From Amphiscolops sp. MND2022 (lineage: Eukaryota), in NCBI GenBank assembly GCA_964187785.1, contig OZ076409.1, positions 62,250,001-62,314,000 on the forward strand: 64,000 nt of DNA. The letters are read 5' to 3'. Shown here one piece after another: positions 11,701 through 61,126 of this stretch. The first letter of the stretch is position 1; every line of letters begins with the position of its first letter. The notes below the pieces were generated by a model. That model did not search any database, was not told where the DNA came from, and saw only the letters and a list, made by a program, of their open reading frames with translations. Position numbers and translations under genes: made by a program.

Positions 11701-14700
11701 ACAACTGAAACGGAATTTTGAAAATGCTGAACCGACCTTACTATGGCTAACTAATCTAAATCAAAAATTGATTACTTTTCCTCGAAATCAGAAAAACATT
11801 GACGCAAAAAAGGCTGGCTTCTACTGGCCGTTGAATAGAATGTGTTGTTGAACTAAATTCTTGGTTTCTTTTAAAATGGAACAGTTCTGCATCCTTTTTA
11901 TTTCATTATTCATTCTCAAAAGTGTTTTCTTGCTCCTGGGGTCTCATATCCAATCAGCATCTTTTGTCAATATTGTTCTGAAAGGGTAACTTTATGCTGT
12001 TAATTTTGGTATGAATGTAAAAGATTGGTCGACTGCTCCTAGGAATGAGGGCAATTTTTCAAAATGGCAGGTCGCAACCTGTCGCCTAATCCCTGGGTTT
12101 TTGCCTTAATCGATGAGATGCCAGTTCGCGTTAAATTATATCCCAGCCACACTATGCTTTCTTGTGCGATCATACGTTTCACGACCTTCAGCTGTGAATA
12201 TGCCTCATGCAGAATTTTTAATACTTCCCTCATTTTGTTTAAATGTTCATGCTTGGTTCCTTTAGTTACAACTAGTATGTCATCTTTGTACACAAAGAAA
12301 CTTTTCATTTTCGCCAACTTGAGCTCCATCAATTTTTTAATTTACAAGGCATTAGCGTAAGGCAATAGATTCACGTTGTTAAACGGTTTGTCCCTGTTCA
12401 TTATTCCCCAACAATTTGAAAATTCCCCGTTTTTTGGTTACTTCCTGTCTGTACGCTCAAGTCATATCTCCGGACAAATACCAAGCCTCCCCATCTTTTC
12501 CGTTAGTTTTTCAGCAATCATATTGCTTAAATTGTCTATATTAGGCATTAGGTATTTGTCTTTAGCTAAAGGCAATCAATTGAGCACTTTCGCGTCGTAG
12601 CAATTTTCACATACTTATCCTTTTTAACAGTTATTACTGTTAGCTGAATAAACAAATCATTTTCCTTTTGATACACTTTATCAATATGCCCCTCCTTTAA
12701 AGCTTTTCAGTTGCTTTATCGCCTCGATTTTGTATCTGAAATGGGATTTGGCGGCGCTTTTGCTGCGTGACTTTCGTATCATGTTCCATTTATTCTTAAT
12801 TTCGTTATTATTCACACGGCCATTTTCTCCTGAGCGATTTCGGAATCTCCTTCAATATTTGTTGAATATCGGGGCTTGCGCACTTTTCGAAAATTATCTC
12901 ACATACTATTTCTTTACAGTTTAAACGTGGTTTATTAAATTTACACTAACCTCTTTCTTTTGGCTGCGTAATTTTGCAGCGGAGATCAACCAACCAATCA
13001 CGGCTCACGATTGTTTTTCCGGAGTTAGACGCTACTAAGACTCTAGCTTTTGACACTATTGCGCCCGCTACCTCAAGTCGCACGAGTTGATAACCAAGTT
13101 AATCCAGTGGCTTCTTGTTATAATCCACGTAGCGCTCATCGTCAATCATATCTCTGATCACCACTTCTTTCTCACTCACAATTTTTTGTTGATCGCGCTT
13201 TGTGGAGAGAGAGAGTGGGTAACCTGTGTCGATAGTTGCTTTAAAATAGCATCCATACATCATCCCTACCATGTAGAAAAAGTTGCACCCTTCTCTGTTC
13301 ATCCGTTACATTGTTTACTCTTAGTCTTTTCCTGATTTTTCGTCAGATTTTTCACTGTAATTCAGCCTGCGCATACTTTTTACGTTATATAACTTGCGTC
13401 ATCTCCTTGTGCCTGTCCGTAAATTCCCTAATACAGCATTTTCCTACCTGTCTGATAATTTTACAAATTTAAAAATGATGAATGGTAGACAAATTCAGAT
13501 GTCTCATTGTGGAGTTAGCTTCCCTGCATCTTTAGCATTCCCTAGGATCAGTCTTTTCCACGACATATACCGAACAATGACTACTGTTTTTAGTGTCTGG
13601 GGGGCTTTTGTTTCGTAAATGTTCTGCCTTTTGACTCCTTCTTCAGACTCAATGGTGACCTCCAATGCTTAGTCAGGCTCTTTTGCTCAGTACTCAGCTT
13701 CTCCAGCACTTTTTTCTTACTCATGTGAAGAGTAAACGTGGTGATGACTAGGGTTGTTGTAATTTTCCCGAAGTCGCACATTGCTGCAAGTCCATTTACG
13801 GCATGCCATAAGTGAACTAATATTTTGCCAGGCTGTCGAATCTTAGATAAAAAAATCGGTCAAGGGTTCAGTTTCGCTTCTCTCGAAAACACTCGTTACA
13901 CATAGTTCTTAGCTGCTGACCCTTTAACTCCCACAAGGCAGTGTTCGGATACTTGTCGATGAACTGTTTCCTCACCTAAGGACAAGTACATTACAGTAAT
14001 AACTTTCTTGTTTGCAGGGTTTTCATCAAGATCCGCTAGCATTAGATGAACCCTGGAATTCTGCTGACTTGATTCCAGTGCCAACTCAGTAATTGAAATG
14101 GAATATTTAACCATCATGGCTACTTGGAAAAGATCGAGTCACTCGTTCAAATCCATAGTAGGGTTAGCAGTCGCGTCGTCGTTCCAGAACACCTGCAAGC
14201 CCACAAGTTGATGAAGATGTTTGGCTCTTTGAAGTCGAACGTTCAGCTCGCTGAGCCATGTTGACGTTGAAATCAATAAACTAGTTGAACACAATATGGA
14301 GGATAACTGTGAATTGATGATGAATTGAAATGTTTTCTTACTGTCTGTTTCGAATAGTCTTACGCAAATGATGCTCGACTAAGTTCAAGGTTCAAGCAAG
14401 TACAGGTACTTATTTACAAACAGTCTTGCTCATTTCATATCTCTACTACAATACGCCAAACAAATACAAAAAAAAACAGAACTTGAAGGAATGTTCACAG
14501 AAAAGTTTCAACTCAAAGTTTCTGTTTTTAAAGAAACGTTTTCTGCCATTTCAGGTTGGTAAGCCTGAAAACAAAGAACTAACAGAACAACTGGAACAAG
14601 AAAATCGATACTATGGAGACCTGATTGTTACAAATGCTGTCGAAGAATATTACAAAACTACCTTGAAAATGTTGATTGGCTACAAATACGTGTCCTGTTT

Positions 14701-17700
14701 TTGCAGCCATGCTGATTACGTCATCAAGTCCGACGATGATAATTACATACGTGTGGAGTTTTTGGATCAGCTGATAACAAAAGAACAGGAAACTCTGGAT
14801 GCATCACAAAAAGTTAGCAAAGATTTCAAAACGTACATACCGAAAATGAAAGTGAAATGAAACTTTGAAACAAGTATCAAAATCCAGACATGTTCTACTC
14901 TTTGTCCAAATTGGTGTTGAAGCATAAAATAAACAAGCGGGAACGGTGTAAGTCAGTCAACAAAATTTTGTAATTATGCTCGACATACCAGCTAGATTGT
15001 TCAAAAAACACTTTGAAATTTTGTTTCTGAAATAAATTTCTGACTCGCGCCTACTTCGTTTCATTTAAATTTTTGTTTCAGCCTCAAAACACTCTGAGGA
15101 TTAAAACGAACATCTATATGGGCAATTGTGGGTTGTTCAAGGTTAGACTTTGCAACTATTTTTGTTTTTCAAGACTTCAAGTAATTTTCATACACAACCT
15201 AGTTAATCTTACAAGCTAGTCATGTCAAATGTTTAGAAAAAAGTTTTTCCTCTCACTTGAACGAAACGGAGAATCTTGTCAGTGAACAAAGTTCATTCAG
15301 GAAGATCAAGAAACAAAGCCTAAAAAATTTAAAGCCTAATTTCTATCTTGATCTTTATAGCCACCATTTTTTGCCCCAGAATTATTGTGCAAAAGTCATA
15401 TCGAAACTATCGTTTCAAACTACTTCATCCTGAATCCTTTCTTCATCAAAAATGAAATCAAAGCTTCTCTGGCCAAGCATATTTAACATGAATTTACAGA
15501 ATTTTCACTGCTCCCGGGAATCAAAGCTCCCGTGATTTTTCTTGTTTTTTTTAAAAAAAAACGTTTTTCAAAAAAAGACCTTGCATGCGTGAAAGCAGCA
15601 CGAAACGTTTCACAGCAGTCAACTGGCATTAAGCAACATACGAATTTGAGAAAAAAGGAACCTAAAACTACTTTTGAAATTTTGTTAAATCTTGATAACC
15701 AACTCGTTATCACAACTAATCAAAATTTCTGCTGTATATTTTCCTTTTGGGCTTTTTGCATCGATCAACAAAAACGACAACTGCTAAAAAATATAAAATG
15801 ATTTCTGACTGTTTGACGTTGTCACGTGAAATCCATATCCAGTTTTTTGAGCCGGCGTTTTCCCCGAAAATCGCTGCACTACTAAGGTGGCAACTTTGAT
15901 CCTCCAGATGTTACTGGGAGACTAACGGCAGAGATTTTTTCCTGCTAATCAGTTTTGGCCAAAAATCAAAAAAGTATCCAGGGCGGTCGAATTGTTACCC
16001 TTCTAGTTATTTGAACTATAAAACAATTTTTTCAGATGCATATGTCAAAAGTACACAGAGAAACAAAGAAAAAACAAACGAAATTAAATAGACATATCCA
16101 AGTAGGACGCAAAATGAGTATTTTTACTCTTCTAAGTTTGCGAGAAGAGTAAAAATACCTTGAGAACCATACATATGCTTTACTTAATTTCTTGATTTTC
16201 ATTTTTTAAAAAAAAACAAATTGAATAGATTTTTGTTGTGTTGTCAACGATACATAGCTTTCTCAATGTCATGATATAGTTCTTGCCGGCCAATGTTTCA
16301 AATTTTCAGTTCCATTAATCAGTTATACGTGTAGCGAGTTGGTCAGAGATTTACGCTTCAAAGTAGTTCTCCAGTAAATGTATGGTAGTAGTTGTCTTCT
16401 TCTAAACCTAGTTGCGTGTATTTTTTCAGGTGTGTTTCCATGATTCAAAAGTTGTAACGGTGATCCCAATCTAATTTGCTTAAGCAGTTCTTTCATCAGT
16501 TCCACATGAAACAGCTCAAAAAACAGCGAAAACACAATTTTTTGTTAAGATTCCACTCAGTGAAACCCTGCTATGCATGAAAATATTGCCTTCAGGATTA
16601 GTGGTTGCGCTTTTTCAAGTTTTACTGAGGTTGTTTTTGGGTCAGAGCCATATGCAGTTATTTTGTACATAATTTTTGATTCAGCAAATTAATAGTAGAA
16701 TAGCAGTAAACAACTTTTCGGATAGAGATGACGAACACGATAGATTAGTCCACGAAATGGATTGAGTTTTTTATAACGTCGATATGTTCTCTAAAGTTCA
16801 GTTTCTTGTCAATGTACGCTCCTAGATACTGACATTTTTGTAGTCAACTTTTCGACAATTTGTATCAAATTTTTCGGTTTTCCCATCCCGAAACAGCTGC
16901 TTTCACATTTTTAGTCGGCGCATTTTATCATAATGAGCCGGAGTATTACAGTGGCAAGTTTTCTTTCCTTTTTTTCGTCAGACAACATAATGTATGCGTA
17001 GTGGACACTTTTTACGGAACTACTAAAGTACTGGAACGGCAAGCGGAATCGCATCTAAGTTAGTGCAAAGGGTCCCCATTTCGTATACTCAACTTTTAAC
17101 GTAAGATACAAAACCGGACAGAACTAAAGGATCCCCCCTTTGAATTTTGTCGGCAAAGTGCCTCTTTTTTAATTTTTTTTGTCGCCAAACGTTCCCTCCT
17201 TCAAATTTTTTATATTTTGCAGCAAACTGAAGTTTCATAAAGCCCAAAGGCTCTCATCTTTCTAGTTTTTTGGCACCATGAGACAAAAACAGAACTTGAA
17301 GGAATGTTCACAGAAAAGTTTCAACTCAAAGTTTCTGTTTTTAAAGAAACGTTTTCTGCCATTTCAGGTTGGTAAGCCTGAAAACAAAGAACTAACAGAA
17401 CAACTGGAACAAGAAAATCGATACTATGGAGACCTGATTGTTACAAATGCTGTCGAAGAATATTACAAAACTACCTTGAAAATGTTGATTGGCTACAAAT
17501 ACGTGTCCTGTTTTTGCAGCCATGCTGATTACGTCATCAAGTCCGACGATGATAATTACATACGTGTGGAGTTTTTGGATCAGCTGATAACAAAAGAACA
17601 GGAAACTCTGGATGCATCACAAAAAGTTAGCAAAGATTTCAAAACGTACATACCGAAAATGAAAGTGAAATGAAACTTTGAAACAAGTATCAAAATCCAG

Positions 17701-20700
17701 ACATGTTCTACTCTTTGTCCAAATTGGTGTTGAAGCATAAAATAAACAAGCGGGAACGGTGTAAGTCAGTCAACAAAATTTTGTAATTATGCTCGACATA
17801 CCAGCTAGATTGTTCAAAAAACACTTTGAAATTTTGTTTCTGAAATAAATTTCTGACTCGCGCCTACTTCGTTTCATTTAAATTTTTGTTTCAGCCTCAA
17901 AACACTCTGAGGATTAAAACGAACATCTATATGGGCAATTGTGGGTTGTTCAAGGTTAGACTTTGCAACTATTTTTGTTTTTCAAGACTTCAAGTAATTT
18001 TCATACACAACCTAGTTAATCTTACAAGCTAGTCATGTCAAATGTTTAGAAAAAAGTTTTTCCTCTCACTTGAACGAAACGGAGAATCTTGTCAGTGAAC
18101 AAAGTTCATTCAGGAAGATCAAGAAACAAAGCCTAAAAAATTTAAAGCCTAATTTCTATCTTGATCTTTATAGCCACCATTTTTTGCCCCAGAATTATTG
18201 TGCAAAAGTCATATCGAAACTATCGTTTCAAACTACTTCATCCTGAATCCTTTCTTCATCAAAAATGAAATCAAAGCTTCTCTGGCCAAGCATATTTAAC
18301 ATGAATTTACAGAATTTTCACTGCTCCCGGGAATCAAAGCTCCCGTGATTTTTCTTGTTTTTTTTAAAAAAAAAACGTTTTTCAAAAAAAGACCTTGCAT
18401 GCGTGAAAGCAGCACGAAACGTTTCACAGCAGTCAACTGGCATTAAGCAACATACGAATTTGAGAAAAAAGGAACCTAAAACTACTTTTGAAATTTTGTT
18501 AAATCTTGATAACCAACTCGTTATCACAACTAATCAAAATTTCTGCTGTATATTTTCCTTTTGGGCTTTTTGCATCGATCAACAAAAACGACAACTGCTA
18601 AAAAATATAAAATGATTTCTGACTGTTTGACGTTGTCACGTGAAATCCATATCCAGTTTTTTGAGCCGGCGTTTTCCCCGAAAATCGCTGCACTACTAAG
18701 GTGGCAACTTTGATCCTCCAGATGTTACTGGGAGACTAACGGCAGAGATTTTTTCCTGCTAATCAGTTTTGGCCAAAAATCAAAAAAGTATCCAGGGCGG
18801 TCGAATTGTTACCCTTCTAGTTATTTGAACTATAAAACAATTTTTTCAGATGCATATGTCAAAAGTACACAGAGAAACAAAGAAAAAACAAACGAAATTA
18901 AATAGACATATCCAAGTAGGACGCAAAATGAGTATTTTTACTCTTCTAAGTTTGCGAGAAGAGTAAAAATACCTTGAGAACCATACATATGCTTTACTTA
19001 ATTTCTTGATTTTCATTTTTTAAAAAAAAACAAATTGAATAGATTTTTGTTGTGTTGTCAACGATACATAGCTTTCTCAATGTCATGATATAGTTCTTGC
19101 CGGCCAATGTTTCAAATTTTCAGTTCCATTAATCAGTTATACGTGTAGCGAGTTGGTCAGAGATTTACGCTTCAAAGTAGTTCTCCAGTAAATGTATGGT
19201 AGTAGTTGTCTTCTTCTAAACCTAGTTGCGTGTATTTTTTCAGGTGTGTTTCCATGATTCAAAAGTTGTAACGGTGATCCCAATCTAATTTGCTTAAGCA
19301 GTTCTTTCATCAGTTCCACATGAAACAGCTCAAAAAACAGCGAAAACACAATTTTTTGTTAAGATTCCACTCAGTGAAACCCTGCTATGCATGAAAATAT
19401 TGCCTTCAGGATTAGTGGTTGCGCTTTTTCAAGTTTTACTGAGGTTGTTTTTGGGTCAGAGCCATATGCAGTTATTTTGTACATAATTTTTGATTCAGCA
19501 AATTAATAGTAGAATAGCAGTAAACAACTTTTCGGATAGAGATGACGAACACGATAGATTAGTCCACGAAATGGATTGAGTTTTTTATAACGTCGATATG
19601 TTCTCTAAAGTTCAGTTTCTTGTCAATGTACGCTCCTAGATACTGACATTTTTGTAGTCAACTTTTCGACAATTTGTATCAAATTTTTCGGTTTTCCCAT
19701 CCCGAAACAGCTGCTTTCACATTTTTAGTCGGCGCATTTTATCATAATGAGCCGGAGTATTACAGTGGCAAGTTTTCTTTCCTTTTTTTCGTCAGACAAC
19801 ATAATGTATGCGTAGTGGACACTTTTTACGGAACTACTAAAGTACTGGAACGGCAAGCGGAATCGCATCTAAGTTAGTGCAAAGGGTCCCCATTTCGTAT
19901 ACTCAACTTTTAACGTAAGATACAAAACCGGACAGAACTAAAGGATCCCCCCTTTGAATTTTGTCGGCAAAGTGCCTCTTTTTTAATTTTTTTTGTCGCC
20001 AAACGTTCCCTCCTTCAAATTTTTTATATTTTGCAGCAAACTGAAGTTTCATAAAGCCCAAAGGCTCTCATCTTTCTAGTTTTTTGGCACCATGAGACTG
20101 TTTTTTTTTCGTTTTTTTATCGAAAATGTTTTCAAATAATTTTTTATATTTTTTTAATTTCTCCAAAGGTCCTTTCTCAACTTTTTTGTTATTTTGCAAA
20201 ACACTGGATTTGAAAAAGTCTAAAGGGTCCCCCCTTTCACAATTTTAAAGAGTTGCGCCTTCTGAGCCTTAGATATAGCGCCGTTTTTAGACGTTCTCGT
20301 CTTGTTTATATAAATTAAAAAGCGAAGCGGACCTAAAACTGAACCCTGTGAAACTCCGGTTGTTTTTTAATTTACTTGACTTTTATCCCGTTAATCAAAG
20401 TATATTGTCCTCTTCCATGGGGATTGTCATCTTCCATGGAGATGTCTTCTTCCATGGAGTTATTTTATATTTCAACTTGAAATACAACTGTAACGTCCGG
20501 CAGTCGGCGTTGCTGAAGTTTTTGGAAATTTCGATCGAAAATTCGAAATGTGCGGCATCGAACAAGCACATTCAAGATGGCCGACCCGGCAGGTACAAAA
20601 ACCGAAGAGGAAGCAAAAAAAGACAGAACGGAGCCAGACCCAGCCCGAGAGACAGACCTCGTTGTCCCTGACACCCGAAGAAACCCAGTAGAGGCTAAAT

Positions 20701-26700: not shown

Positions 26701-29700
26701 AAGCAGGCTTCTCAAAAAATCAGTGTTCATTGCTCGATTCATGCCTAAGGTGTACCTTGGAGCTCGGTACCACAGTTGCGTGAACCATGTCGATGTGAAA
26801 ACACCGGACCAGAGATTGGCCTGGGGAGTACCCGTACTCTCCCGAGAGAAATTAACACCAAGCATGATGAAACGCCTAGAGCTTCGAAGCTCTGAGAACT
26901 GCTTGGCCTGCGGCCGTGCTTTTAGAACTCGAATGATTGCTCTGGAACTTGTTTTCAATGCCGAAGACTGTTTTCATGATCTATCATGCCTGATTTTTGA
27001 CTTTTATTGATTCTGCTCTATCGTCGCTTGTGACATTGTCATCCTCTTGAAAACCAGTTTATTTCCATCTCTTGCATATACACTGGTGCTTGTACTACCT
27101 AGGCAATACTTATACCTGAGCGTACACTGCTAACACAATAGACTGAATGGGTCCTCACTTTTGGTGATATTTTTGATTTTTTGAGGCCTGTTTCACCATT
27201 GGTGCTAGTTATTGTGCAGTTTCTATTGGCCATGAACTTTGCAAGACCACAGCTGTTACTTTTATTTTTCGCTTCTCAAGTGCTATCGTGCATTTTGTAA
27301 AACCTAACCTATCAGGTGGGCCCCTGGTCAGTGCCAAACCTGTTGTGATGAGTGCTTTTTCTGCAGATGCAATAAGGTGCTAGGAATTTTGAAATTTTGG
27401 TGCGAAATTAAAAATTTGAAATTGTTTTGAATATAAGGCTAAGTGTCTCAAGTTGCTGATATTTTTCCAGTGCAAGAACCCGTTGTTGGTGTGGAAACCA
27501 AGGAAGCCTGCTAGGCTGGCAAAAACTCATGTTTTTGGGCAATAACGTGTTTTTGGGCAACGACTTCCATTTAGATTCCTGAAGTACCATGTTGCAACAG
27601 TATCACTGGATCACTGGATGGTGGCAACCAAGATGTGAACGTCCTCTCTCGTTTGTCGAGGACGACAAACTACGGCCCGGGGTGGATGTAACGTCCGGCA
27701 GTCGGCGTTGCTGAAGTTTTTGAAAATTTCGATCAAAAATTAGAAATGTGCGGCATCAAACAAGCACATTCTAGATGGCCGACACGGCAGGTACAAAACC
27801 GAAGAGGAAGGGAAAAAAGACAAAACGGAGCCAGACCCAGCCCGAGAGACAGACCTCGTTGTCCCTGACACCCGAAGAAACCCAGAAGAGGCTAAAGAGA
27901 ACAAAACCACGGGTTGTGTCATACCCCCAAAGGATGTCCTGGAAGGCCCGAAGGAGATCGAGAACCCGACGGTGGTTTGCCCGAAGATTTTGGAAACTGC
28001 ATGAAGATCAGCATGTTTTATCATTTTCAGTGCATTTGTAGCTACTGCCCTTTATTTCGCAGATTTATGATGGTTCAGGATCTACTAGATCCCTGTTTTG
28101 CCCATTTTAGATCTTATTCACAGAATTGATGTACTTTAGCTAAACCTCTGTTTTTGGCCTCGGAAGTATGTAGGAGGTCGCAGGAACACGCTAGAAACCT
28201 AAGGATTCGTTTTTACAGGCTTGTGGGGCGTGTCCGGACTTTGAGAGTGCCGGCGCGTCGCCTCGGAGCTCTAACTAGAGGAGCCTCCTCAGACGAAAGA
28301 AAAGTCCCCCTTGGAGACCATTTTGTGATCAAAAACTAGTGTCTAGGGCTGTAGTAAGACAACGGTCTCCTGTTTAAGCACCCTAGGCATTGTCCCTCTT
28401 GCCTTCAGAAGTATTTCAGAAGATTTCGCAAGTTGTTTTTGATCATTTCCAGAAGACTTTCCTCTTCATACTTTGCTCGGAGGAAATCTGTCCGAAATGA
28501 AATATATTTAAAAACGTTTTGTCTCTCAAATGAAGACAGGTCTAATTTGTAAGTGGAGACTTCTGCTTGGCTCGACTTGAAGAAGTGGATTTGAGTGGCA
28601 CATACAATAGTTTGTGTCACTCAAATCCACTCCTTCAAGTCGAGCCAAGAAGAAGTCTCCACTTAAAAAGTTACGGGAACTCACAAGGATTCAAATTGAG
28701 GAATGCGTCAAAAACATTATAATGTTATTGATGCATTCCTCAATTTGATTCCTTGAGGATATAAAAAAATATAAGAAATAAGAGGATATAAAATAACTAT
28801 AGTCTAATATAAAAATACAAAGATCCCTTTGAAATGCATTTCTAAAATTTAATTCTTCTTATACCCGACTAATTGATTACCAAACAAAAGTGAGTCAATG
28901 AGTTCACACCTTTTATGAGGGAGTTAACTCAGGCCCCGCCCGAAGTGCTTAGGAGGTTAGGTTCAGCTGAAGTGAGAATGCTCTTCGGCGTCTGCAATCT
29001 GATAGTCTAAAAGAATCTTTTTATCGAGGACAAAATGAGCCTGTTGACTTTACTAGTTGCGACCTTAGGAATCACATTCAGCGCTGAAAAAATTTTTCAA
29101 ATATTAGAAATGCATTTCAAAGGGATCTTTGTATTTTTATATTATACTATAGTTATTATATTAGACCATAGATTCCTCAAGGAATCAAATCGAGGAATGC
29201 GTCAATAACATTATAATGTTTTTGACGCATTCCTCAATTTAATTCCTTGTGAGTTCCCGTAACTTTTAACGGATTGTGTTGAAGTACATCATCCAGTTGC
29301 TTCCATCAGTCAAAACGTTTTCTTTGGACTTTTTCGCCGACTGATCGCTTGTGAATCTTCCGGTATTTCAGATTTTTGAATTACTGAATTGCATTTTATG
29401 GTTGTTAACGAAGACAGAACAGTAATATTGATTGTAGTCTAGGATGTATTTCCGATAGGAATGGCTTCAAATGAAAAGCATTCTTAGAAAAGAAAAAATT
29501 CTAGGATAAGGGAATTGGCTTTTTATTGAAACAACAAATATGAGAATTCCCATCAGACATTCAGGCTCTTTCGTAAATTTTAGGCTAGAATGACAACTAA
29601 ATACAGCACTAGTTGGGAGTCTACCGAGTTCCATTTATACCTGTTGTTCACTGTAGTTTGACCCTGTTCAATTGTAGTTTCAGACCGAATTGATTGCCTA

Positions 29701-30138
29701 ATGGTCACAATATTCAGGTGTATAGATTTGCAGGTTGTCCGGGATGGAAGATGGGCCGTTTCGTACGAAGAGTACAATAAAACGAACATCTATCCTAAAT
29801 ATTGCTCCGGGGCCTTGAATGTGCTGAGCATGGAAACCATTCATGGAGTAGCGAAGGAGTGCCCCAACCATTGCATTGGATACGATCGCCTCGAACTTGA
29901 GACAGACAAACCTCAATCTTGCTTTTGGAAATTTGAAGATACTCACCTCGGTTCTTGCATTTTCTATACCCAGAAAAATACAACAATGCTACCACTGTCA
30001 CACGCAAAAGCTTTATTCGTCTACAAAGACAATTATCAAACCCAATTACCATATGAAAAACATCTTGTGGTTTTCGAAGTGGAAAATGCTTATGAAATGA
30101 TACTTTTTCACACTCTCTATAAAAACATAACTTTCTGA
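8726..30138 (+). CDS. GT31 / beta-1,3-galactosyltransferase-family gene. Exons 8726-9036, 14555-14812, 15082-15141, (duplicates 17368-17625, 17895-17954), 29734-30138; 5' exon uncertain
   Basis: GT-AG, phase-0 joins give KRDNIRRSF..WTILFL|VGKP..EQENRYYGDLI...Y.KTTLK..YVIKSDDDNYI..|PQNTLRIKTNIYMGNCGLFK|VVRDGRWAVSYEEY..YPKYCSG...FEDTHLG. All canonical GT31 motifs are in order. Confidence 0.88.
9290..9362 (-). repeat. Degenerate tRNA-derived SINE-like head
   Basis: Minus strand TAGTTAGGATAGGCGCTTTCCAAACAGACG..: D-arm/anticodon-like look, but the B-box is broken and there is no acceptor stem. Confidence 0.3.
9439..14470 (-). mobile_element. Old, heavily decayed Ty3/Gypsy LTR retrotransposon in the GT31 intron
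   Basis: Diverged direct repeats starting TGTTGACGT at 9439 and 14259. PBS-like TGGCTCAGCGAG abuts the right LTR. Remnants of protease (IDTG, ~13230), RT (FVYKDDILVV), RNaseH (FSSRLTRWVDRLL..MADY) and integrase (LHYGHLGRD) occur in Gypsy order. Confidence 0.85.
14472..20098 (+). repeat. Near-perfect direct tandem duplication, units 14472-17284 and 17285-20098 (~2.81 kb)
   Basis: ORF pairs offset by 2813-2814 nt (e.g. 16323/19137, 16860/19674). The only differences seen are homopolymer lengths; junction CATGAGAC|AAAAACAG. Confidence 0.97.
19726..20305 (+). mobile_element. Helentron-type element copy (its 5' part is duplicated at 16912-17284)
   Basis: TTTTAGTCGGCGC start; ends GAGCCTTAGATATAGCGCCG..AGACGTTCTCGTCTTGT. 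Confidence 0.75.
20489..28400 (+). mobile_element. Ty3/Gypsy element with decayed gag, pol deleted, 3' LTR truncated
   Basis: ~710-bp direct repeats starting TGTAACGTCCGG at 20489 and 27687. Purine-rich GGCCCGGGGTGGA precedes the second. The 5' LTR possibly ends ...CTCCTACA at 23379, before a PBS-like stretch. Confidence 0.85.
24019..26490 (+). pseudogene. gag: gag (frameshifted, with stops)
   Basis: ORF pieces 24019-24702, 24726-25283 (coiled coil) and 25319-25834; capsid-like RNQNSEEDYMQYLDALEGLRSQGYP; CCHC knuckle CFNCGDPSHFVVDCP at ~26403-26447. Confidence 0.8.
28550..28665. repeat. Long hairpin (~53-bp arms, 10-nt loop)
   Basis: TAAGTGGAGACTTCTGCTTGG...GGCACA / TGTGTCACTC...GTCTCCACTTA. 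Confidence 0.9.
28667..29265. mobile_element. Fold-back MITE with ~170-180-bp TIRs, TTAA-flanked (Kolobok/piggyBac-type target)
   Basis: AAGTTACGGGAACTCACAAGGA... / ...TCCTTGTGAGTTCCCGTAACTT; TTAA at 28663-66 and 29266-69. Confidence 0.7.
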
Positions 30139-30226
30139 CGTTTATATTGTTTATTTTGTACAGATGTTGGAAAATGGGTCTTTATTTGGCTACTTCTACA
30201 TTACGTTGCAGAATAAGTTAAAACAT

Positions 30227-30950
30227 AACAGGGGGAACGTCTCAAGTCGGCGCTATACCTAAGGCTCAAAAAACTCAAAAAGGTTTTGAAATATGTTCAG
30301 GACGTCTCAAAAAAAAGTTCTGAAACATCAAAAAGGTGCCTTTGGTGCTTCTGAAAAAGTTCGCTTCAGAAGTTTGAATTTAACGTGCTGGAACAAATGG
30401 AAGCGCTTGTTTTCAAAATTCCCTCTTTTCCTTGGTAAACGCAATATACTTCGGATATAACGATAAAAATTTGGATATAGCGGTTTACATCAGTTATTAC
30501 GTCGAAAATTCAGATGGTATTTGAAAAATTATTGGATGTATATTGACAAAACATTATATCAAACGAAAAATAAGAATTTTGAAACAGTCGCATAGTGCCG
30601 AAAAACGTGAAAGTGGAGACCCTTTGGGATTTTTTAACATTCATTCTGTTGCAAAATATCCAAAAAAATGAAGGGGCTCTTTGGAGACAAAGAAATTTGC
30701 GAAAAAAAGTCTCACAGTGCCAAGAAAATCGACAGTACCTTTTAGTCTCGCCCGGTTTTGTATGTTACGTTTAAAAAGTGAAAAAATGAAAGGGGACCCT
30801 TTGCATTAACTTAGATGCGTTCCCAGGTATTCGTTTAGTTGAACAAACCTAATAAACTTCCGTCGCAATTGATTCTGTCTTGAAAAAAAAAACAAAAAAA
30901 CGAGTGAGTGTAACAGTCGGGCTCTTTTTGTATATAAAAACCCTAGACTA
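30227..30950 (-). mobile_element. Helentron-type element copy (diverged)
   Basis: Begins AACAGGGGGAACGTCTCAAGTCGGCGCTATACCTAAGGCTC (reverse complement of the family 3' end); internal GGGACCCTTT blocks. Confidence 0.65.
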
Positions 30951-31275: not shown

Positions 31276-31773
31276 TCAAATGACGTGGACGAAAACTAGT
31301 TCCGCGCTTGGGCCTTTGATCCGAAGTTGTTCATCATCTCTAATGAGCGCCGGAACAACTTTTAGATGCGTTATTTCTGACATGAGATCGGAAATTCTGC
31401 CTTCCCATGCATTTACTTCAGGATCAGTTGATGCCATCAATGTCGAAATAAAGGACCCATTCTTCCAATATACATTTCGCCAAATAAAGCCACCATCGGA
31501 ATCGAATACAGATCCATTGATAACTAGAGTACCACTCATTTGGTTTACAACGGAGAAGGAAACCTCCAGTAGCCCGTCCGAGGAACAATCTCCCGTGACT
31601 TCGAGGTTAACGTTCGTTTTGAAAGGGCCAAATTCATGCTCTTGACCTACTTGGATTTTGTGCAAAACCCATTTGCCCTCGCAATCCAATAGTTCTTCGA
31701 GGGGCTCACTCGACGATATATTCTTTGTGAAGATTGCCGAAATTAACAGGAAAGCCAACAGCTTGTGAGACAT
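31276..31773 (-). CDS. Intronless secreted protein with META (HslJ/DUF306)-like domain, 165 aa
   Basis: ATG start; signal-peptide-like MSHKLLAFLLISAIFT; GKWVLHKI...SVVNQMSG...GSFISTLMASTDPEVNAWE..ISDLM...LRIKG..LVF follows the META pattern; intact ORF amid decayed DNA. Confidence 0.7.
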   Translation of the reverse strand: MSHKLLAFLLISAIFTKNISSSEPLEELLDCEGKWVLHKIQVGQEHEFGPFKTNVNLEVTGDCSSDGLLEVSFSVVNQMSGTLVINGSVFDSDGGFIWRNVYWKNGSFISTLMASTDPEVNAWEGRISDLMSEITHLKVVPALIRDDEQLRIKGPSAELVFVHVI

Positions 31774-31944
31774 AATTGATGCCAGATTGTCTAGCCGGGA
31801 GGGATGTTTTGTCTCGATCCGTTATCTTGTTTGACATCTTGAATAAAAAATATTGAAGTGCAAATAAGTTGATTCAGCGAGATATTTCAACAGTTTCGGT
31901 CAATTTTTCAAGCTGAAAATCCGCAGAAGTTACTTTTCACCATT

Positions 31945-32533
31945 TTTCACCACTGCAGTTCGTGTGGATTGAAAAAAAAGAGTCACTATAATAGTTGCGT
32001 TTCACTTCATGAAGCGCCGACTAAAAATGGTCGGCAACAATTGATTCAATTTGGGACCATAAAATTTCGTATAATTTTTTCGAACTATTTTGGTCATGAC
32101 CAAAATAGTTCGAAAAAGTTATACGAAATTTTATGGTCCCAAATTGAATCATTTGGCCTAGCGAATTAAACCAAAAAGATTTTTCCTCTTTTTCCGCGCA
32201 ACATACAATACCGGGAGAGACTAAAGTGTCCCCCCTTTCAGTTTTTTGATGTTTTGCGACAGAATGGATGTCGAAAAATCCCAAAGGGTCCCCCTTTAAG
32301 TTTTTTCGGCATTGTGACTCTTTTCTTCGAATTTTTTTCACCAAAGGGTCCCCCCTTCAACTTTTTCATGTTTTGTCACAATGGATGGCAAAAAATGCGA
32401 AAGGGCGTGCCAATTCGGTCCAACTTTTTGGGTTTTTCAGGTACCGTGGAAGAGAATACTTTGACACTTTGAAGTCCTTTTGCTATTTTTGAGCCTTAGA
32501 TATGGCGCCAACTTGGGCCGGTCCCGGCTTGTT
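31945..32533. mobile_element. Rearranged Helentron-type copies joined by a ~109-bp palindrome (32042-32150)
   Basis: Minus-strand 5' end GCGCCGACTAAAA (~32014-32026); palindrome centred on GGTCATGACC; plus-strand 3' end GGCGCCAACTTGGGCCGGTCCCGGCTTGTT. Confidence 0.65.
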
Positions 32534-33726
32534 CCCCAAATGTTGAGTGTGCTACCGATTAACTGGTTATTTTCAAAAGTTAGTCGATTAAGCTAAGTTT
32601 TCAACTTTTCCGGGTCCTAGCCCCCCATTTCAGCACTTTGATAGCTTTAGAGCAATTCTTAATTTTGAAATTTTGTATCAATTGATACAAAATTGCAAAA
32701 TTTGTTTTGGAATTACCTACTTGCAGACAATATAGCGGTAATATTATTCTGCATGCCCCGCAAAACACCCAACCGCGTATTATTATTCATAGTTAAAGAT
32801 CTTATTCAGCGAACAAAACATTTTGAAGAGCTGATGAATTGAGGAATTCTTGAGTTGAAATTACTTCAATCCAAGTGAGTTGATCTGTTTCAGCTTATAT
32901 TTCTAATTGAGTCAATAAATAGTGTTATCTGATAGTCTAGACTCTGGATTTTGTGCGATCATGCTTCAAAGCTGTTGTCGGTTTGTTTTTTGATGCATTT
33001 GTGAACATTAACGATTTTATCGACAGACGTTTGTTTTGCGAACAAATTGATAGAGACACAATAGGCTTTCAACCTACAACGAGATTTGAATTTGAGCAAA
33101 ATTTTAGGGCTACTCCTGTTGACCGTTGATCTTTTGTCGCTTTCGACTCCCATTCATTTTCAAGTTCGTCTCCAAAATGATGGCTTTTTCAAAAAAATTG
33201 CTAAATTTTAGATATGAAACGACCACCTCATTGCAAATTGAACATGCTCAAAGGTCACCAGATATCAAAAACCTTGTGAAGTTCCTTTAGATCTTAATAG
33301 CTTTCTATGTAAGATTTTTGGAATTTCCAGTAGCTTTAAGACAAGGAAATCATGATCTTCGCAACTTTGGTATTTTACCGTCTTTCAGGGGGTTTGTCTC
33401 GCTACTCTTAGGCTGTTTTTAGAGTATCTTTTCGCTGATGAGAAGAAGCAGGTTGAACTTTAATTAATACACAACAAATAAATAAGTCGATTAATAGACA
33501 CAAACACAATTTCACATCCACGAATAATAGAATGAATAATATGATAACATCGATAATAGCGGAGAATATTACGGAGTATATTAGGAGGTATATAACACAA
33601 GAGAACAACAAACAAGGGTTTCAGCAAGGTTAAGTTTTATATCCGTGAGGATGGAGGTGATATCGAAGATATTGAAAGAATCAACTCGCCGCAAAATCTC
33701 TATTGATCATGGAGTGAAAACAAAAT

Positions 33727-33898
33727 CCGTGTATTATCAGCCCACTTAGGCTCAACCATGTATTATCAGCCCACTTAGGCTCAACCGTGTATTATCAGCC
33801 CACTTAGGCTCAACCGTGTAATATCAGCCCACTTAGACTCAACCGTGTAATATCATCCCACTTAGGCTCAACCGTGTATTATCAGCCCACTTAGGCTC
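33727..33898 (+). repeat. Minisatellite, ~6 x 29 bp (CCGTGTATTATCAGCCCACTTAGGCTCAA)
   Basis: Head-to-tail copies with no spacers. Confidence 0.95.
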
Positions 33899-36800
33899 TT
33901 TTACATGTAATACGATAGACCTACAGTCCACCCTTCTCCCGGGTCGAAATCCCTACTAGCGAAAAGCGGGGTAGCAATATATCAGGCTGCATCAGGTTAC
34001 GCTGACGGCACGGGCTAACCGGCTAGTCGAAGAAAATCTGCAATTTCAATAGTCCGACGTCTGATGCGGAATGCTATCGGACACCAAGGCAGCAAACCGT
34101 TTTCTAGATTTCAACTCATTTTGTGTGTAGCTAAAATAGCGCACACTTCGGCCAAAGTTACTTTTTCGGCGGTTTATTCATATCTTTATTCATAATTCAT
34201 CATCCTTTTTGGGACCCTGACTAAGTGTTGAGCAATACAGTTTTTCCTACTTCGGTACTAAAAGTTCATCAGAAGTACGTTTTCTCACCACGACTCAGTT
34301 CAGTTCTGGTTCCACCTTCTTGTCAATCATGACTAGTGTTTTTACTTCGTTTTCAATAAGATTTAAGGGGAGGTGTTACTGACTCAATTTTTCCCACTTT
34401 TGTAAGCACGACTTGAACTTCGGCTTACTGATTGACATTTGCACTTTTTTGTCAGGCCTATTTTTCCCACACGGTCCCTGACAACTCTCTTCAGCTAAAC
34501 ATGGCTGGAGGAAATAATTTCCAACAATTTACAATGACCTAAAAGGCTATTTTAATTCCTAGTCCAAGAAGTCGATTTTCGTGTTACAACTTTGAAGGGC
34601 AAAAACTAGGTGTTCCTATCTCGGGGGGCTGAAACTACAAAAACTTACTCCATGGTCAACTTTCTATTTCAACTCCTTCATGGTGAAAAACACCCTTAAA
34701 AATTGGTAGTCGAGAATCGCTTGTTATTTTCCACGCAAATCTCAACTTTGGAGGGCTCATTCTCAGTCATTTTGAAAGATACAGACTGGGGGCTCATTTA
34801 CATCGCTAGCCCAAACCATTGGGAGTATTTTGCGCTTTAGATGACGTCTCGAGCGTGTTTCAACAAAATTTGGTTTCGAATTTTCGAGTTTTCGAATTTT
34901 CGTGACCTGACCTCCAACTTTAGATGTCAATATCTCAACACCAGGTCGTTTTTCGGAAACACGCTCCTGCTAAACGCTGTGCGCAAGACTCTCGTGCGTC
35001 TATCCTGAAAGTTTCAGCTCGAGATCGCCCAAAACGTGCGGGGGGTTTCGCATTTTGGTGAATCGATTTCAGTACTGACAACAAAAATTCTCTACTTTCA
35101 ATTCTTGGGGGTTTCTCGCTAGCGCGCCGCAGCACTCTATTTATTATTTCATTCACTCCTCCTCTTCAATTCTCAAGTACGCTGCAAAAGGGGCGGCTAT
35201 TGTGCGCTTCTACGTTGAGTACTAAGCGATATCACGCGAAAAACGGCTATTTAGGCCATTTCAGGGCCTTTTTTAACGTTTGCTGGATCAAATCTCAAAA
35301 ACTACTGAGTAATATTTATTTTCCATTTACCAACAGTTAGGACATTCATTCATCTTTAATTTGAGCCATATCCGAACATTTTCTGACAACTGTAGCGATC
35401 ACACGAAATTTCTAAAGGAAACTCATTTTTGGAAAATCGTAAAAATTTTACACGCACTTATTTTCAAAGCTTCCCCCCAATATGTTCTCGTTACCGCACA
35501 AAACTCATATTCTCAACTTAAGTTTTCCTTTAGACGGGCTGTCGAATGCTGAAAACCGTTTGTTGCTATCTTTTTTCATCTTCGAAAAATCGGGTTTTGA
35601 TTTTTATTTTCTATTAAGAGGGGGATTAATTCAAAGTGTGCGGCGGCCGTTTTCTTTTTAGCTACGCGTACAGCCACTCACAGCGCGTTCTAATTTTCAT
35701 TCCATTCGCTTTCTCACACGCTTAGGTGAGTTGCATTCATATGCTCATAGCACACTCTGCGAAGTTTCACTCTCGCTTACCCTCAAATACATGTATTAAC
35801 ATAGCAATTTGATTACAATTCTGTTCACAGTGAATTATGACTTCAAGTGCAATTTCTGTTGAAACTCGTTGCTCAAAAGTTTTTAAATGTTTACTCAACA
35901 CGTAGTCAGGTCAAAAAGGGACATTTGATGGTTTAATTTTTCTTATATTCGCTATAGGTATCGAGAAATTCAATGTTAAAGTTTCGTTCCGATTAGAATT
36001 TTCTTACATAGGTTTAGGTGGCGGCGGCCGTCTTACTGCTTTAATACGTTGTGCGGCCACTTGCTAACAGCTACGAATGGTTATTTTGGTTGTCCGCGGG
36101 ACTAAAGACGATAATATTGACATTAAACAATAATGCGAGGTACTTGAATTACCTATTGTAATGTTTACTTTTATACGATATCACCTCCGGATATTCTACC
36201 TTGATGATGAAATAAAATTTAATAAACACCATTATCATGAACGGAAAGTCAAAAATCCTACATTCTAGTTTCCGATTGTCCCTCAACTAGACAATCTGAA
36301 CACGTAAAGCAACTGAGAACAAGTGAGAAGAACCTCTGAGATCACGGTGGTGCTCTTTGGAAAAAACCATTACTGAAAGTGAGTTAAACAAGTATCATAG
36401 TACTATAAAAACTTCATAGTGTTTTTTTTGGAATATTATGAGGTGAGATGTTGCGGGAACTGTGGGAAATTTGTGTACTCTGATGAAAAGAGCCATTGAC
36501 TTCCAGATTTGTTATTTCATTTCCGAAAAACAGGTTCTATTTACGTTTCTGAATCAACTGCTTCAACTCCTTAGCTCATTAAATGTTTCAAATGTTTGTG
36601 GTTATTACAGAAGCTGAACAGAGTGAAAACTGTAGTTGACAGGTCTCTTGATGAAGTAAAGCTGTAAACAGGTTGTGTAAAAAGACTTGAGCTTCTTTCG
36701 ATACACTTTTTTGAAATCAAAATGATACTCTTGAAGGCTCAAAGTACTTTATAACTCTGTAGAATTTCGATAGCAAAACAAAATGCCTTTCGCCAACACG

Positions 36801-44751: not shown

Positions 44752-45013
44752 TTGTTTATATTTGATTGTGTGAGCCCATCTTCCCTCACTTAGAATTTTG
44801 CTTCCATTACTACCTGGCACTGGTGGCATTTCTCCGGTTCTCGTTCGATAAAGTCTGATTTTTTAAATCATTATGTCGGAATAGAATAAATATATTTATT
44901 CTATTCCGACATAATGATTTAAAAAATCAGACTTTATCGAACGAGAACCGGAGAAATGCCACCAGTGCCAGGTAGTAATGGAAGCAAAATTCTAAGTGAG
45001 GGAAGATGGGCTC
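44752..45013. repeat. Perfect loop-less palindrome (141-bp arms, centre 44892/44893); the last 20 bp of the right arm are displaced to 61132-61151
   Basis: Base-by-base reverse complementarity around AATAAATA|TATTTATT; continues ACACAATCAAATATAAACAA after the retroelement. Confidence 0.92.
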
Positions 45014-46571
45014 TGTGATAATCCTCTAAGGACTCTGCGTCTGATTCTTCATCTGAGTGTATTGTTACGTCTACATCTGACTCGTATAAAGGTTTAGCAG
45101 GATGTTTTAATTCTTTCATTTTTGACGCTTTAAGAGGATATTCTTCGTTTTCTGAATCAGAGTTTTCATTGTTTGATGCGCGTGCTCCTATAGACTTGTT
45201 CACCTTGGATCCCGACGGTTGCATGTCTTGTATTTCATTCACTTCTGACCTGGGATTCGTTACGGTTGATGCACTTTTGTTTGATTTTATTTCTCTGAGA
45301 ATAGTTTCGAGCTTATTTTCCATTTCTTCGCGCATTTTCTCAATTCTGTCATTGTTTCTCTGTTCAAATATCTGGGTCCAAGCTTGGATCTCAGTACTAA
45401 TCTGACTGGGCTCAATAGTTTGAACTCCTGAGGTATTTTCACCTAAACTTTCTTGTACAACAGTGTTAAAATTAGTCAAAGTCTCATTACCTGTATTAGG
45501 GGTTTCTACCTGAGTTCTCTCAACATCTCTATCGGGAGATGGTGTTTCAAGTCTTCTAGATCTTCGATTTCTTCTATTTCCCATTGTTTTTCTCAATTGA
45601 AAAGTTGTTATGTTTGCCGGGGAAGAATTTGAATTACGAAGTTGAACAGATATTCAGTTGAACAAAGAATTCAACAAAAGTCGAAGAATACTGCATTTAC
45701 AGCAATTGATCAAAATGAAGTGACTGATTTCAATGAAGGATTCTTTTGTTTTGTTTTTATATCCCAGCACTTTTCCTCAAAAGTTTTTAAAACATGACAC
45801 TCATAATTTTGTCCATCATCATCAACAAAATTATAAAAAACCTGACGTCAAGTGACGTAATTCTATTTATAACCAAAATATATTCGTTGCATGACATCCA
45901 ATATTCGAATGCTGAAAGGACGTTTAAAACCCTGGGAAACTGTAAATTCGCGTATGTTCATCATCAAAAATCCGCTTAATGACGCATAGGATTGTAGGGG
46001 TGAAAGTTACAGCACAATGAGATTAGAATGGAATGTTTTCGTGTGATGACGTATACTCATTCTGTATTTTCCGCATGTTGACGTGTAGTCTACGTATACA
46101 CAATTCATAGCACTTGTACAATAAGATTGATGTATGTCAGTATAATGCCGCATAGACAAACACACTCTACCGCATATTGACGTGTACACGTTTAGACTTT
46201 TACGTACAATACATCATATTTAGTGATTGGAATCAGCACATTAGAGCATAATCAGCAGTTTCTATCCACATGGTGACTCACTGATGATTATTTAAAGGCA
46301 TTTACATAATAATCATCACATTTCCATACATGACAAATCCTAATTACGACAAAATAACTCATCGATTTTCAAAGTAATTCAAGATGTAGTAATAAAATAA
46401 TTTACATGACTTGTTTGATGAACAATCAAAAACAGGTAGACAAACATTAAAGAGAGAGAGTTTGTTTAGTTTATGGGGTTTAGGTCGTTTACAGTTTACT
46501 TCTTCGGGTAGTACTCAGAGTTCTCTTTCAGGCTTGCACAACAGGTCCAGAACAACCTTGAGGCTGTGACA
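45014..46571 (-). repeat. 3' LTR (1558 bp)
   Basis: Direct repeat of 59554-61126 with scattered substitutions and one 15-nt in-frame indel (NEEYP vs NLKKKFKDYP). Confidence 0.95.
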
Positions 46572-47543
46572 GTCCCGCACCTTTGAAAGAGAACAGGGCT
46601 GCCTCAAAACCGTCTATGAATGCTCTAGATCTGACCCCGCGATCCCTAACTGTTTCAGCGTCGTAAGCAGTTGCTACAAGATATCTTCCCAGCGTTTCCA
46701 AAGCTTTGAGGTCGTAACACTTTCCACACCAGTCACAAAATCCAGCGACGTGGGGCATCACAGTAGGAATTAAGCGATACATTTGCCTCTCGTTCGAGGG
46801 CAATAAGAGCAGATTCGTACTGTGGCTAACTTGCAGTGGAAAGTTCGGTAAGGCTACCGGGTTCGTTCCGATGTTTTGTTGCATAGTGATAGGGTTCCCT
46901 TGGTGAGGTGGTATTTGAATCATCAAAGGAGCGTTATCGTATGTGGGCAAGTCATTTCGCATGCCATTTTGATTGTTATGCAAATCCTGCTGAGTTGAAC
47001 CTTCATGATGCCAAATTCGAAAATTTGTTGAATCGTTTGTGAAATTAGGGGGTATGTAGGAATGGGTCTATTAACGTTGATAGGTTGTCGATTGTCCGTT
47101 CTAGGGGTTGGTAGAATAGGTGCCGTTGGCCTCCCATAACTGTGTGTTTGCACACGGGTAGGTCTTTCAGATTCTGGCGGAGACATTGGGGAATCTTCAA
47201 ATTCAGTATCTATAAAAGATGTAGACGACAATTCCCTGCCGAAGTTATGTTCATCTATAACTTCCATGCGTTGGCGCTCAATGTTGGTTCCCGCTGTATC
47301 AATAGTTTCGTGTAGGCTAGCTTCTACTGACTGTGACGGGAACAAAGTCGCTGAGGCTGCCCCCATGAACGCTGTAATCGCATCTGTCCCAGGGCCGCCA
47401 ACTCTGAACCTTTCTTGTAGTACAGGTAAGTCACCAGGTTGGACCAAGAACTCTTCACCAGAGTCACTAGACACGTCGATGATCTCAGGGGACTCAATTG
47501 AAATCAGTGGGCTATCCTCGAGGGCAAATTGGAGGTTATTCAT
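46528..47543 (-). CDS. Accessory ORF of unknown function (~338 aa, one frameshift near 47000), ending inside the 3' LTR
   Basis: MNNLQFALEDSPLISIESPEIIDVSSDS.. (ATG 47543) joins ORF 46528-46983 with GFCDWCGKCY and RSRAFIDGFEAAL; stop is ~43 nt inside the LTR. Confidence 0.6.
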
Positions 47544-58440: not shown

Positions 58441-58441
58441 T

Positions 58442-60139: not shown

Positions 60140-61126
60140 TGTTTCTCTCAATTGAAAAGTTGTTATGTTTGCCGGGGAAGAATTTGAATTACGAAGTTGA
60201 ACAGATATTCAGTTGAACAAAGAATTCAACAAAAGTCGAAGAATACTGCATTTACAGCAATTGATCAAAATGAAGTGACTGATTTCAATGAAGGATTATT
60301 TTGTTGTGTTTTTATATCCCAGCACTTTTCCTCAAAAGTTTTTAAAACATGACACTCATAATTTTGTCCATCATCATCAACAAAATTATAAAAAACCTGA
60401 CGTCAAGTGACGTAATTCTATTTATAACCAAAATATATTCGTTGCATGACATCCAATATTCGAATGCTGAAAGGACGTTTAAAACCCTGGGAAACTGTAA
60501 ATTCGCGTATGTTCATCATCAAAAATCCGCTTAATGACGCATAGGATTGTAGGGGTGAAGGTTACAGCACAATGAGATAAGAATGGAATGTTTTCGTGTG
60601 ATGACGTATACTCATTCTGTATTTTACGCATGTTGACGTGTAGTCTACGTATACACAATTCATAGCACTTGTACAATAAGATTGATGTATGTCAGTATAA
60701 TGCCGCATAGACAATAACACTCTACCGCATATTGACGTATACACGTTTAGACTTTTACGTACAATACATCATGTTTAGTGATTGGAATCAGCACATTAGA
60801 GCATAATCAGCAGTTTCTATCCACATGGTGACTCACTGATGATTATTTAAAGGCATTTACATAATAATCATCACATTTCCATACATGACAAATCCTAATT
60901 ACGACAAAGTAACTCATCGATTTTCAAAGTAATTCAAGATGTAGTAATAAAATAATTTACATGACTTGTTTGATGAACAATCAAAAACAGGTAGACAAAC
61001 ATTAAAGAGAGAGAGTTTGTTTAGTTTATGGGGTTTAGGTCGTTTCAGGTTTACTTCTTCGGGTAGTACTCAGAGTTCTCTTTCAGGCTTGCACAACAGG
61101 TCCAGAACAACCTTGAGGCTGTGACA
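59554..61126 (-). repeat. 5' LTR (1573 bp)
   Basis: Followed on the minus strand by PBS TGGTGACAGGAGCCCCTC. Confidence 0.95.

Follow-up and report, generated by a model that had tools for sequence, protein, structure and literature searches.

A divergent META/HslJ-family gene for a putatively secreted protein in an animal-like genome, with a likely origin in bacteria

How a protein of the bacterial META/HslJ type could come to be encoded in the repeat-rich DNA of an animal-like genome is the question raised by one open reading frame in the stretch of 64,000 nucleotides analysed here (the window). The original prediction, made from the sequence alone, regarded this frame as an intact and intronless gene for a secreted META/HslJ-like protein and as a candidate for horizontal transfer. 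Translation of the minus strand between 31276 and 31773 confirmed an unbroken frame of 165 amino acids from Met to stop (P0001), and among 500 mononucleotide shuffles of the 3.2 kb around it one produced a Met-initiated frame of at least this length. The coding sequence has a GC content of 0.44 and a GC3 of 0.45, compared with 0.36/0.40 and 0.44/0.49 in the two adjoining host exons; both values fall inside the host-exon range, so that the base composition is host-like. The encoded protein is acidic (22 Asp and Glu versus 12 Lys and Arg). The absence of introns held for the coding sequence, and the 5' leader contains candidate acceptor AGs ending at 31791 and 31838, the first of them a possible splice acceptor 17 nt and the second 64 nt upstream of the ATG. 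The repeat family suggests an animal, probably an acoel, as the host; genomes of acoels are rich in AT and in LTR elements, and one species uses spliced-leader (SL) trans-splicing (PMC9911081). An out-of-frame ATG at 31837 starts a 43-residue open frame overlapping that of P0001 and could reduce translation of the latter. No Rfam match was found in the 64-kb window. P0001 is missing from the protein collection, in which 7 of 10 other window open reading frames looked up are present as exact entries, all from one ENA contig of 636,817 bases. The features of the locus are collected in Table 1.

Table 1. Positions of the META-type gene, its parts and its immediate neighbours in the window
Feature	Position	Strand	Basis
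Single-exon coding sequence, P0001, 165 aa, very probably a divergent META/HslJ-family protein	31276..31773	-	translation, phmmer, fold, profile
5' region with candidate splice/trans-splice acceptors and upstream ATG	31791..31840	-	read from sequence
Putative signal peptide, about residues 1-21, cleavage site by eye, without lipobox	31711..31773	-	hydropathy
Predicted META-type broken beta-barrel with one long helix, residues ~29-165	31279..31689	-	AlphaFold2 model
Motif V75-V-N-Q-M-S-G81; V76 at the usual first-Cys position of bacterial META	31531..31551	-	alignment
N-glycosylation sequon N86-G-S; N-D-T at the same position in both relatives	31510..31518	-	alignment
Motif S110-T-L-M-A-S115; S115 at the usual second-Cys position of bacterial META	31429..31446	-	alignment
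Last coding exon of convergent GT31 (beta-1,3-galactosyltransferase-like) gene	29734..30138	+	tblastn with P0011-P0013, 42-44% identity
Dispersed host repeat downstream of the META gene	30225..30830	.	74-89% identical pieces near 3, 17, 20 and 40 kb
Further copy of this host repeat family in inverted orientation, upstream of the META gene	32170..32540	.	repeat comparison

The assignment to a family was reached mainly through the relatives of P0001. No family was matched by P0001 itself in Pfam (at E up to 10) or NCBIfam. The phmmer search of 1.84 billion representatives with P0001 gave five matches at E ≤ 0.001, none of them near-identical, and two of these, P0002 and P0003, align to P0001 over most or nearly the whole length with 34-35% identity (E 2e-7 and 8e-7). 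Both pass the Pfam META (PF03724) gathering cut-off of 24 bits, P0002 with 24.9 and P0003 with 38 bits, and neither matches any other family. The comparison with Pfam META that had been proposed as a check was thus negative for P0001 and positive for its two relatives. The remaining three matches (P0004-P0006) were dropped, as they consisted of short repeat-driven alignments to proteins with unrelated domains. The same search recovered no bacterial META protein, which indicates that its sensitivity was only moderate. A word-index search with P0001 gave none of 561 candidates at E ≤ 1, and with an alignment of five sequences it returned P0002 and P0003 alone among 1,841 candidates.

Profile comparisons connected P0001 directly with the bacterial domains. 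A bacteria-only META profile (101 bacterial META domains and 6 bacterial seeds) gave P0001 11.7 bits, the maximum over 5,000 shuffles being 4.9; nine of its 107 rows are of an Enterousia-like type found by motif, which makes this score slightly circular. The best score of P0001 with any single sequence among the collected bacterial domains was 9.2 bits. The profile of P0001 and its relatives, searched against 177,635 PDB sequences, had HslJ as its sole match (E 0.12), and hhalign to E. coli HslJ gave a probability of 72 and an E value of 3.5e-5. The ESM Atlas placed META clusters first for both P0001 (0.82) and P0003 (0.87), values which lie below 0.9 and are taken as leads only. The hydrophobic and structural positions W35, L37, I40, F51, F73, V75, N77, F108, T111, M113, I127, L130, L150 and F161 are invariant among P0001 and its relatives, and the META motifs around N77 and S110-M113 line up with the bacterial domains. 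With E. coli HslJ (PF03724, DUF306; PDB 2KTS) P0001 shares the predicted broken beta-barrel with central helix, the conserved Asn and S/T-T-x-M motifs and the character of a single small domain that is exported, putatively so in P0001; it differs in lacking the lipobox and the Cys pair, in possessing a sequon and longer loops, in residing in a eukaryotic genome, and in a sequence identity of 9-20% across alignments, which places it below Pfam detection. The META/HslJ-like identity originally proposed is therefore upheld by the Pfam scores of the relatives, the bacteria-only profile, the hhalign result and the best fold match described below, and P0001 is with high probability a very divergent protein of the META/HslJ family, to be called a relative of that family rather than a Pfam-scored member.

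The two motifs quoted in the original prediction, VVNQMSG (residues 75-81) and GSFISTLMAS (residues 106-115), are both present, and the bacterial Cys pair is indeed missing, V76 and S115 replacing the cysteines. Across 101 sampled bacterial META domains, a set biased to the best Pfam matches and with two loci of an unpublished genome excluded, the pair (C-N and M-x-C) was complete in 90, absent in 8 and represented by one cysteine in 3. Trypanosomatid META1 is likewise not known to carry the bacterial Cys pair, and from this a likeness of P0001 to the trypanosomatid type had been drawn. That step fails, because META domains free of the pair are also found in bacteria, namely in host-associated Alphaproteobacteria and among Actinomycetota, where 4 of 31 domains are of this kind, so that the loss of the cysteines is not a trypanosomatid signature. 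A GTDB scan for the Cys-free motifs themselves yielded at least 120 loci; of those listed, 92 had an open frame and 86 proved to be META, almost all from genomes titled Alphaproteobacteria or Candidatus Enterousia. Proteins of the Candidatus Enterousia type (e.g. L021, L013 and L019) share with P0001 the V-V-N and S-T-x-M-M-G motifs without cysteines and have the best scores against the profile of the clade, up to 30 bits. These META loci (within L009-L128, e.g. also L073) represent a large Cys-free lipoprotein subfamily of gut- and termite-associated Alphaproteobacteria, Candidatus Enterousia and its relatives; two of them come from genomes labelled Ruminococcus gnavus (L083) and Lactobacillales (L088) and are possibly mis-binned. 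The two cysteines which P0001 does possess, C31 and C63, could be joined in a new disulfide, as judged from strand order.

The features of P0001 concerned with export are of eukaryotic rather than bacterial character. Its most hydrophobic 10-mer comprises residues 5-14 (Kyte-Doolittle mean 2.98, the next best elsewhere being 1.75), and by the same hydropathy analysis no stretch of transmembrane length follows; this N-terminal peak fits the signal peptide that had been predicted. The lipobox pattern was found in none of five sequences (P0001, P0002, P0003 and the cluster mates P0007 and P0008 of the last two). By contrast, 80 of the 86 Enterousia-like META proteins among the matches listed have a lipobox-like Cys, identified with a loose pattern. 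A sequon nine residues past the conserved Asn is present in P0001, P0002 and P0003 (NGS, NDT and NDT; 3 of 3). In bacteria it occurs at that site in one of 97 general domains and, among the matches listed, in one of 86 of the Enterousia-like type, together 2 of 183, and the probability that a given protein has a sequon at one particular site by chance is under 1%. Since the three proteins share it by descent, the sequon is, on the evidence of the alignment, a single gain retained through S/T exchange and not three events. P0001 is quite probably expressed and secreted.

P0001, P0002 and P0003 formed one clade in every tree built. The support was SH-aLRT 95 in a quick tree of 117 rows, and 100/97, 100/100 and 98/96 in three careful trees of 41 rows hand-picked from the 117, with 74-105 alignment columns; the stem of the clade is long (1.3-3.4 changes per site). 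P0002 and P0003 are both encoded on an ENA contig of 391,543 bases. P0007 and P0008 lie together on another contig of 404,403 bases and are identical to P0002 and P0003 at 151 of 157 and 150 of 154 aligned positions, which looks like a single paralogue pair represented by two haplotypes or copies. Among the proteins closest to the GT31 exon next to P0001 there are likewise only ENA entries (3 of 210 candidates), one of them on a contig of 44,133 bases, a length that recurs for a contig with the Gypsy element of the window. Two transposon-type open reading frames of the window have 90%-identical copies on many other large ENA contigs (15 of 17 and 15 of 16 of the members listed), so that the contig of the window is one of many with this Gypsy element, and the protein collection includes the assembly of the host itself. 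The lengths of the contigs with P0002 and P0003 do not occur among those members. The GARP/FYMINK ratio, a weak indicator, is 0.58-0.59 for P0002 and P0003 and 0.59-0.60 for host-type GT31 paralogues. P0002 and P0003 are, on this indirect evidence, probably paralogues of P0001 from the same host assembly, and paralogues at 33% identity would imply a long residence in the host genome. The frame of P0001 is intact, its core and sequon having been kept across the clade at this level of divergence, and the host META gene is probably functional.

The origin of the clade was approached through the distribution of the domain and through trees. Of the bacterial genomes sampled, 35 of 121 in Pseudomonadota, 30 of 61 in Bacteroidota and 20 of 101 in Actinomycetota contained META. 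The sister group of the clade shifted with the alignment, no donor group being consistent across four trees, and the 117-row tree gave no resolved neighbour. The proteobacterial sequence L179, sister at 98/90 in a MAFFT alignment, was rejected, since the strand before the conserved Asn was out of register with the model strands. Once the strands were anchored on the AlphaFold2 model, an Enterousia-like sister group appeared at 99/99; this grouping was lost after removal of the nine motif columns used in the scan, and an alternative placement was not rejected (p-AU 0.41). Enterousia-like bacteria were consequently not accepted as donors, their support hanging on the motif columns that had served to find them. 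With so short an alignment and so long a stem no donor can be named. Of the phylogeny which had been suggested as a check, the clade itself thus stood firm and a stable bacterial sister group did not emerge. The transfer is inferred from the distribution of META and not from nesting in a donor clade, and on this basis an origin of P0001 in bacteria by an old transfer is likely.

Searches for closer sequences gave a uniform picture. No close bacterial relative of P0001 was present in GTDB, in JGI metagenomes or among the 1.84 billion proteins; the META alignment search confirmed 0 of 35 viral (IMG/VR), 0 of 123 metagenome and 0 of 47 GTDB stretches, and motif scans with 6 viral and 8 metagenome matches contained no META gene. 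The clade profile gave one weak match, judged to be due to chance, in 301 Pseudomonadota genomes, and tblastn with P0003 on phages and plasmids and with P0002 on plasmids gave none. No named animal protein was matched in the word-index or phmmer searches. The original prediction had held that broad metazoan orthologues would speak for vertical descent; none appeared in the phmmer search of the 1.84 billion representatives, a search which also missed all bacterial META, and divergent animal orthologues could escape it too.

Two variants of the origin deserve mention. The animal lineage may have acquired META independently from a host-associated alphaproteobacterial symbiont, the product being a secreted glycoprotein family which, where host and symbiont meet, binds lipids or metabolites of microbes or algae, so that barrels of the bacterial envelope would have become a second lipocalin-like system; this more specific version is unlikely. 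It is rather unlikely, too, that META arrived through an intermediary, either another eukaryote such as a protist, an algal symbiont or a food organism, or else a large DNA virus, or that it belongs to an old eukaryotic family kept patchily, perhaps with an ancestry shared with META1. Such a route would agree with the long stem and with a best bacterial score as low as that given above; P0002 and P0003 could stem from a co-assembled organism if the assembly were mixed, and trypanosomatids, as PMC3270026 describes, already carry a eukaryotic META lineage. However, the five phmmer matches include no trypanosomatid, algal or viral protein, the word-index searches gave no trypanosomatid sequence either, none of the IMG/VR stretches was confirmed, and a fold search of BFVD with the P0001 model gave nothing at E ≤ 0.001, leaving an origin in giant viruses without support. 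In amino-acid bias P0002 and P0003 equal the host-type GT31 paralogues, weak as this indicator is. Trypanosomatid META1 and META2 resemble P0001 in being eukaryotic META proteins ascribed to lateral transfer from bacteria and in having a hydrophobic cavity; META1, however, has 112 residues and aligns to HslJ minus its signal sequence (both according to PMC3270026), unlike P0001-P0003.

The fold of P0001 was modelled with AlphaFold2 from five sequences, at low confidence (pLDDT 54.5); a single-sequence model (pLDDT 38) was discarded. In the model a helix occupies the middle of the sequence with more strands after it, an arrangement shared with HslJ, and in a structural search HslJ (2KTS) was the best match with Z 8.8, rmsd 2.8 and 107 residues aligned, in a type of search where top Z values of 7-8 are common without true kinship. 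It was followed by 4ZGF, 2LA7, 4QRL, 4L3R and 1Y9L at Z 8.6-8.0. 4ZGF and 4L3R are DUF4847 proteins, 4QRL is a Bacteroides protein titled 'lipocalin-like', and 2LA7 is presumably a META protein. 1Y9L is MxiM (PMC13042144). Foldseek with the same model gave nothing at E ≤ 0.001; it ranked rice fibrillin 5 first and then 2KTS and 2LA7 with probabilities of 0.99-1.00, the E value being only 0.03. The structural check that had been proposed was accordingly positive as to the best structural match and negative as to Foldseek significance. MxiM (1Y9L), ToxS (8U2F) and the DUF4847 proteins belong to the same fold group as the model (Z 7.1-8.6); they differ from P0001 in showing no detectable sequence similarity to it and in having bacterial envelope partners that are missing from the host.

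Taken as a whole, the reading that appears most plausible, and which we hold to be somewhat probable, is that of a resident host gene derived from a bacterial META/HslJ gene by an old transfer, since duplicated, and encoding a secreted soluble carrier of a ligand. The gene of a bacterial META/HslJ envelope protein would have entered a eukaryotic, animal-like lineage long ago and would there have been duplicated into a small divergent family. The signal peptide would route P0001 through the endoplasmic reticulum, where N86 could be N-glycosylated, and the protein would be set free in soluble form, in contrast to bacterial HslJ, which is lipid-anchored. The hydrophobic core of the broken barrel might then bind a small hydrophobic ligand, such as a lipid, a sterol, a bile-salt-like molecule or a pigment, outside the cell in the fashion of lipocalins, for example in mucus or at a surface facing microbes. 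A carrier function is proposed because two members of the fold group bind such compounds: the cavity of MxiM binds lipid (PMC3270026) and ToxS binds glycocholate (PMC13042144). By this analogy, whether P0001 is a carrier of small ligands may be regarded as evenly balanced.

With the same origin P0001 could have another task, that of a secreted chaperone or partner-binding protein or of an extracellular factor protecting against stress, an alternative which we consider improbable. HslJ, ToxS, MxiM and META1 are grouped as chaperone-like in PMC13042144, HslJ guards Acinetobacter against H2O2 (PMC11724541), and META1, the modelled cavity of which matters for secretion, alters secretion in Leishmania (PMC3270026). 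The known roles, however, require envelope partners (secretins, ToxR) or a membrane anchor, which P0001 does not have, and the Cys pair that possibly serves redox chemistry is missing; carrier and chaperone functions would be compatible with each other.

Animals possess secreted lipocalins, and P0001 might be a fast-evolving animal lipocalin or fatty-acid-binding protein whose likeness to META is due to chance or convergence, with no transfer involved. Lipocalin-type folds do appear at the lower ranks of the structural search (Z 5-7.3), and fibrillin 5 was first in Foldseek. Fibrillin and lipocalin-type folds nevertheless rank below the HslJ group at Z 7.3 or less, save for 4QRL, P0001 has no lipocalin match in Pfam, and its relatives pass the cut-off for META and for no other family. 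The position of the helix before the later strands and the alignment of the N77 and S110-M113 motifs with bacteria also argue for META, and this explanation is very improbable.

The genomic surroundings bear on whether the gene belongs to the host at all. As originally described, it is convergent with an intron-containing gene, identified here as a GT31 (B3GALT-type) galactosyltransferase gene with plus-strand exons at about 8785-9045, 14555-14830 (copy at 17368-17643) and 29734-30138, the acceptor AG of the last being read from the sequence. The upstream exons match Pfam Galactosyl_T, the relative P0011 has beta-1,3-galactosyltransferase 5 as its best PDB match (E 1.4e-15), and the stops of the GT31 and META genes are 1,137 nt apart. 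An extra short exon at 30164-30218 was rejected, as the C-termini of the relatives, compared by eye, fit the stop at 30138. P0001 has host repeats on either side at a distance of no more than 400-450 nt, which, together with the nearby intron-bearing GT31 gene, bears out at assembly level the claim that the gene is embedded in a eukaryotic contig. The inverted flanking repeats were considered as arms of a single gene-carrying transposon and dismissed, being 81-84% alike and thus no closer to each other than to other copies in the window. Among 25 window open reading frames tested with Pfam no bacterial gene was found, the other matches being domains of Gypsy-type retroelements and one weak match below the cut-off, and the host DNA is repeat-rich with about 30-44% GC outside one GC-rich element. 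That the locus is a contaminant, the product of a chimeric join or a bacterial insertion of recent date and without function, as the intronless coding sequence and the possible presence of bacteria in a metagenome-type assembly might suggest, is most improbable in view of the host repeats, the host-like GC, the lack of a bacterial neighbour gene and of a close bacterial relative in the collections searched, and the eukaryote-type secretion features.

The window gene for GT31 has at least three coding exons and introns of 5-12 kb. Its relatives P0011-P0013, with 51-53% identity on one exon, are called as single proteins of 352-429 residues, apparently without introns; a Cys-rich stretch before W-K/R-F-E-D is shared. 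One exon of the window gene is doubled by a tandem duplication of 2,814 nt (14472-17284 and 17285-20098, 99.96% identical), which is either a very recent event or an assembly artefact.

Among eukaryotes META was, as of 2011, recorded from trypanosomatids only (PMC3270026). No report of META in animals was found in the literature searched (titles and abstract openings), and META is unmentioned in the main text of a compendium of metazoan transfers (PMC13342648), the gene tables of which may bear on this claim. If the reading given here is true, the gene represents a second eukaryotic capture of the domain after that of trypanosomatids, with a clear refit in which the lipid anchor and the disulfide were lost while a signal peptide and a glycosylation site were put in place; it would also offer a soluble META from a free-living host for testing the ligand of the family. 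The domestication of single bacterial genes by invertebrates is already known, so that the surprise is limited. The family itself is known as well; what is probably new is a non-lipidated, probably glycosylated and secreted META in an animal-like host.

The remainder of the window contains several further elements. Between 49278 and 53327 on the plus strand there are long broken open reading frames of 506, 145, 129 and 289 residues with a C-x2-C...H motif, transposase-like by eye, for which Pfam gave no match. A Gypsy-type LTR retrotransposon (gag, RT, RNase H and integrase) occupies 53564-60208, and a copy of its 5' part (1.56 kb, 97.9% identical) lies at 45014-46572, adjoining a perfect palindrome of 242 nt at 44772-45013. 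Tandem arrays are found at 61607-62252 and 33698-33927, one with a 17-nt period, which leaves long frames open on either strand, the other with a repeat of 29 nt. Upstream of the META start by 265 nt there is a near-perfect palindrome of 118 nt (32038-32155) composed of two 59-nt arms with 97% identity and no loop, and similar palindromes occur at 28546-28669, 28684-28755, 29178-29249 and 32661-32702.
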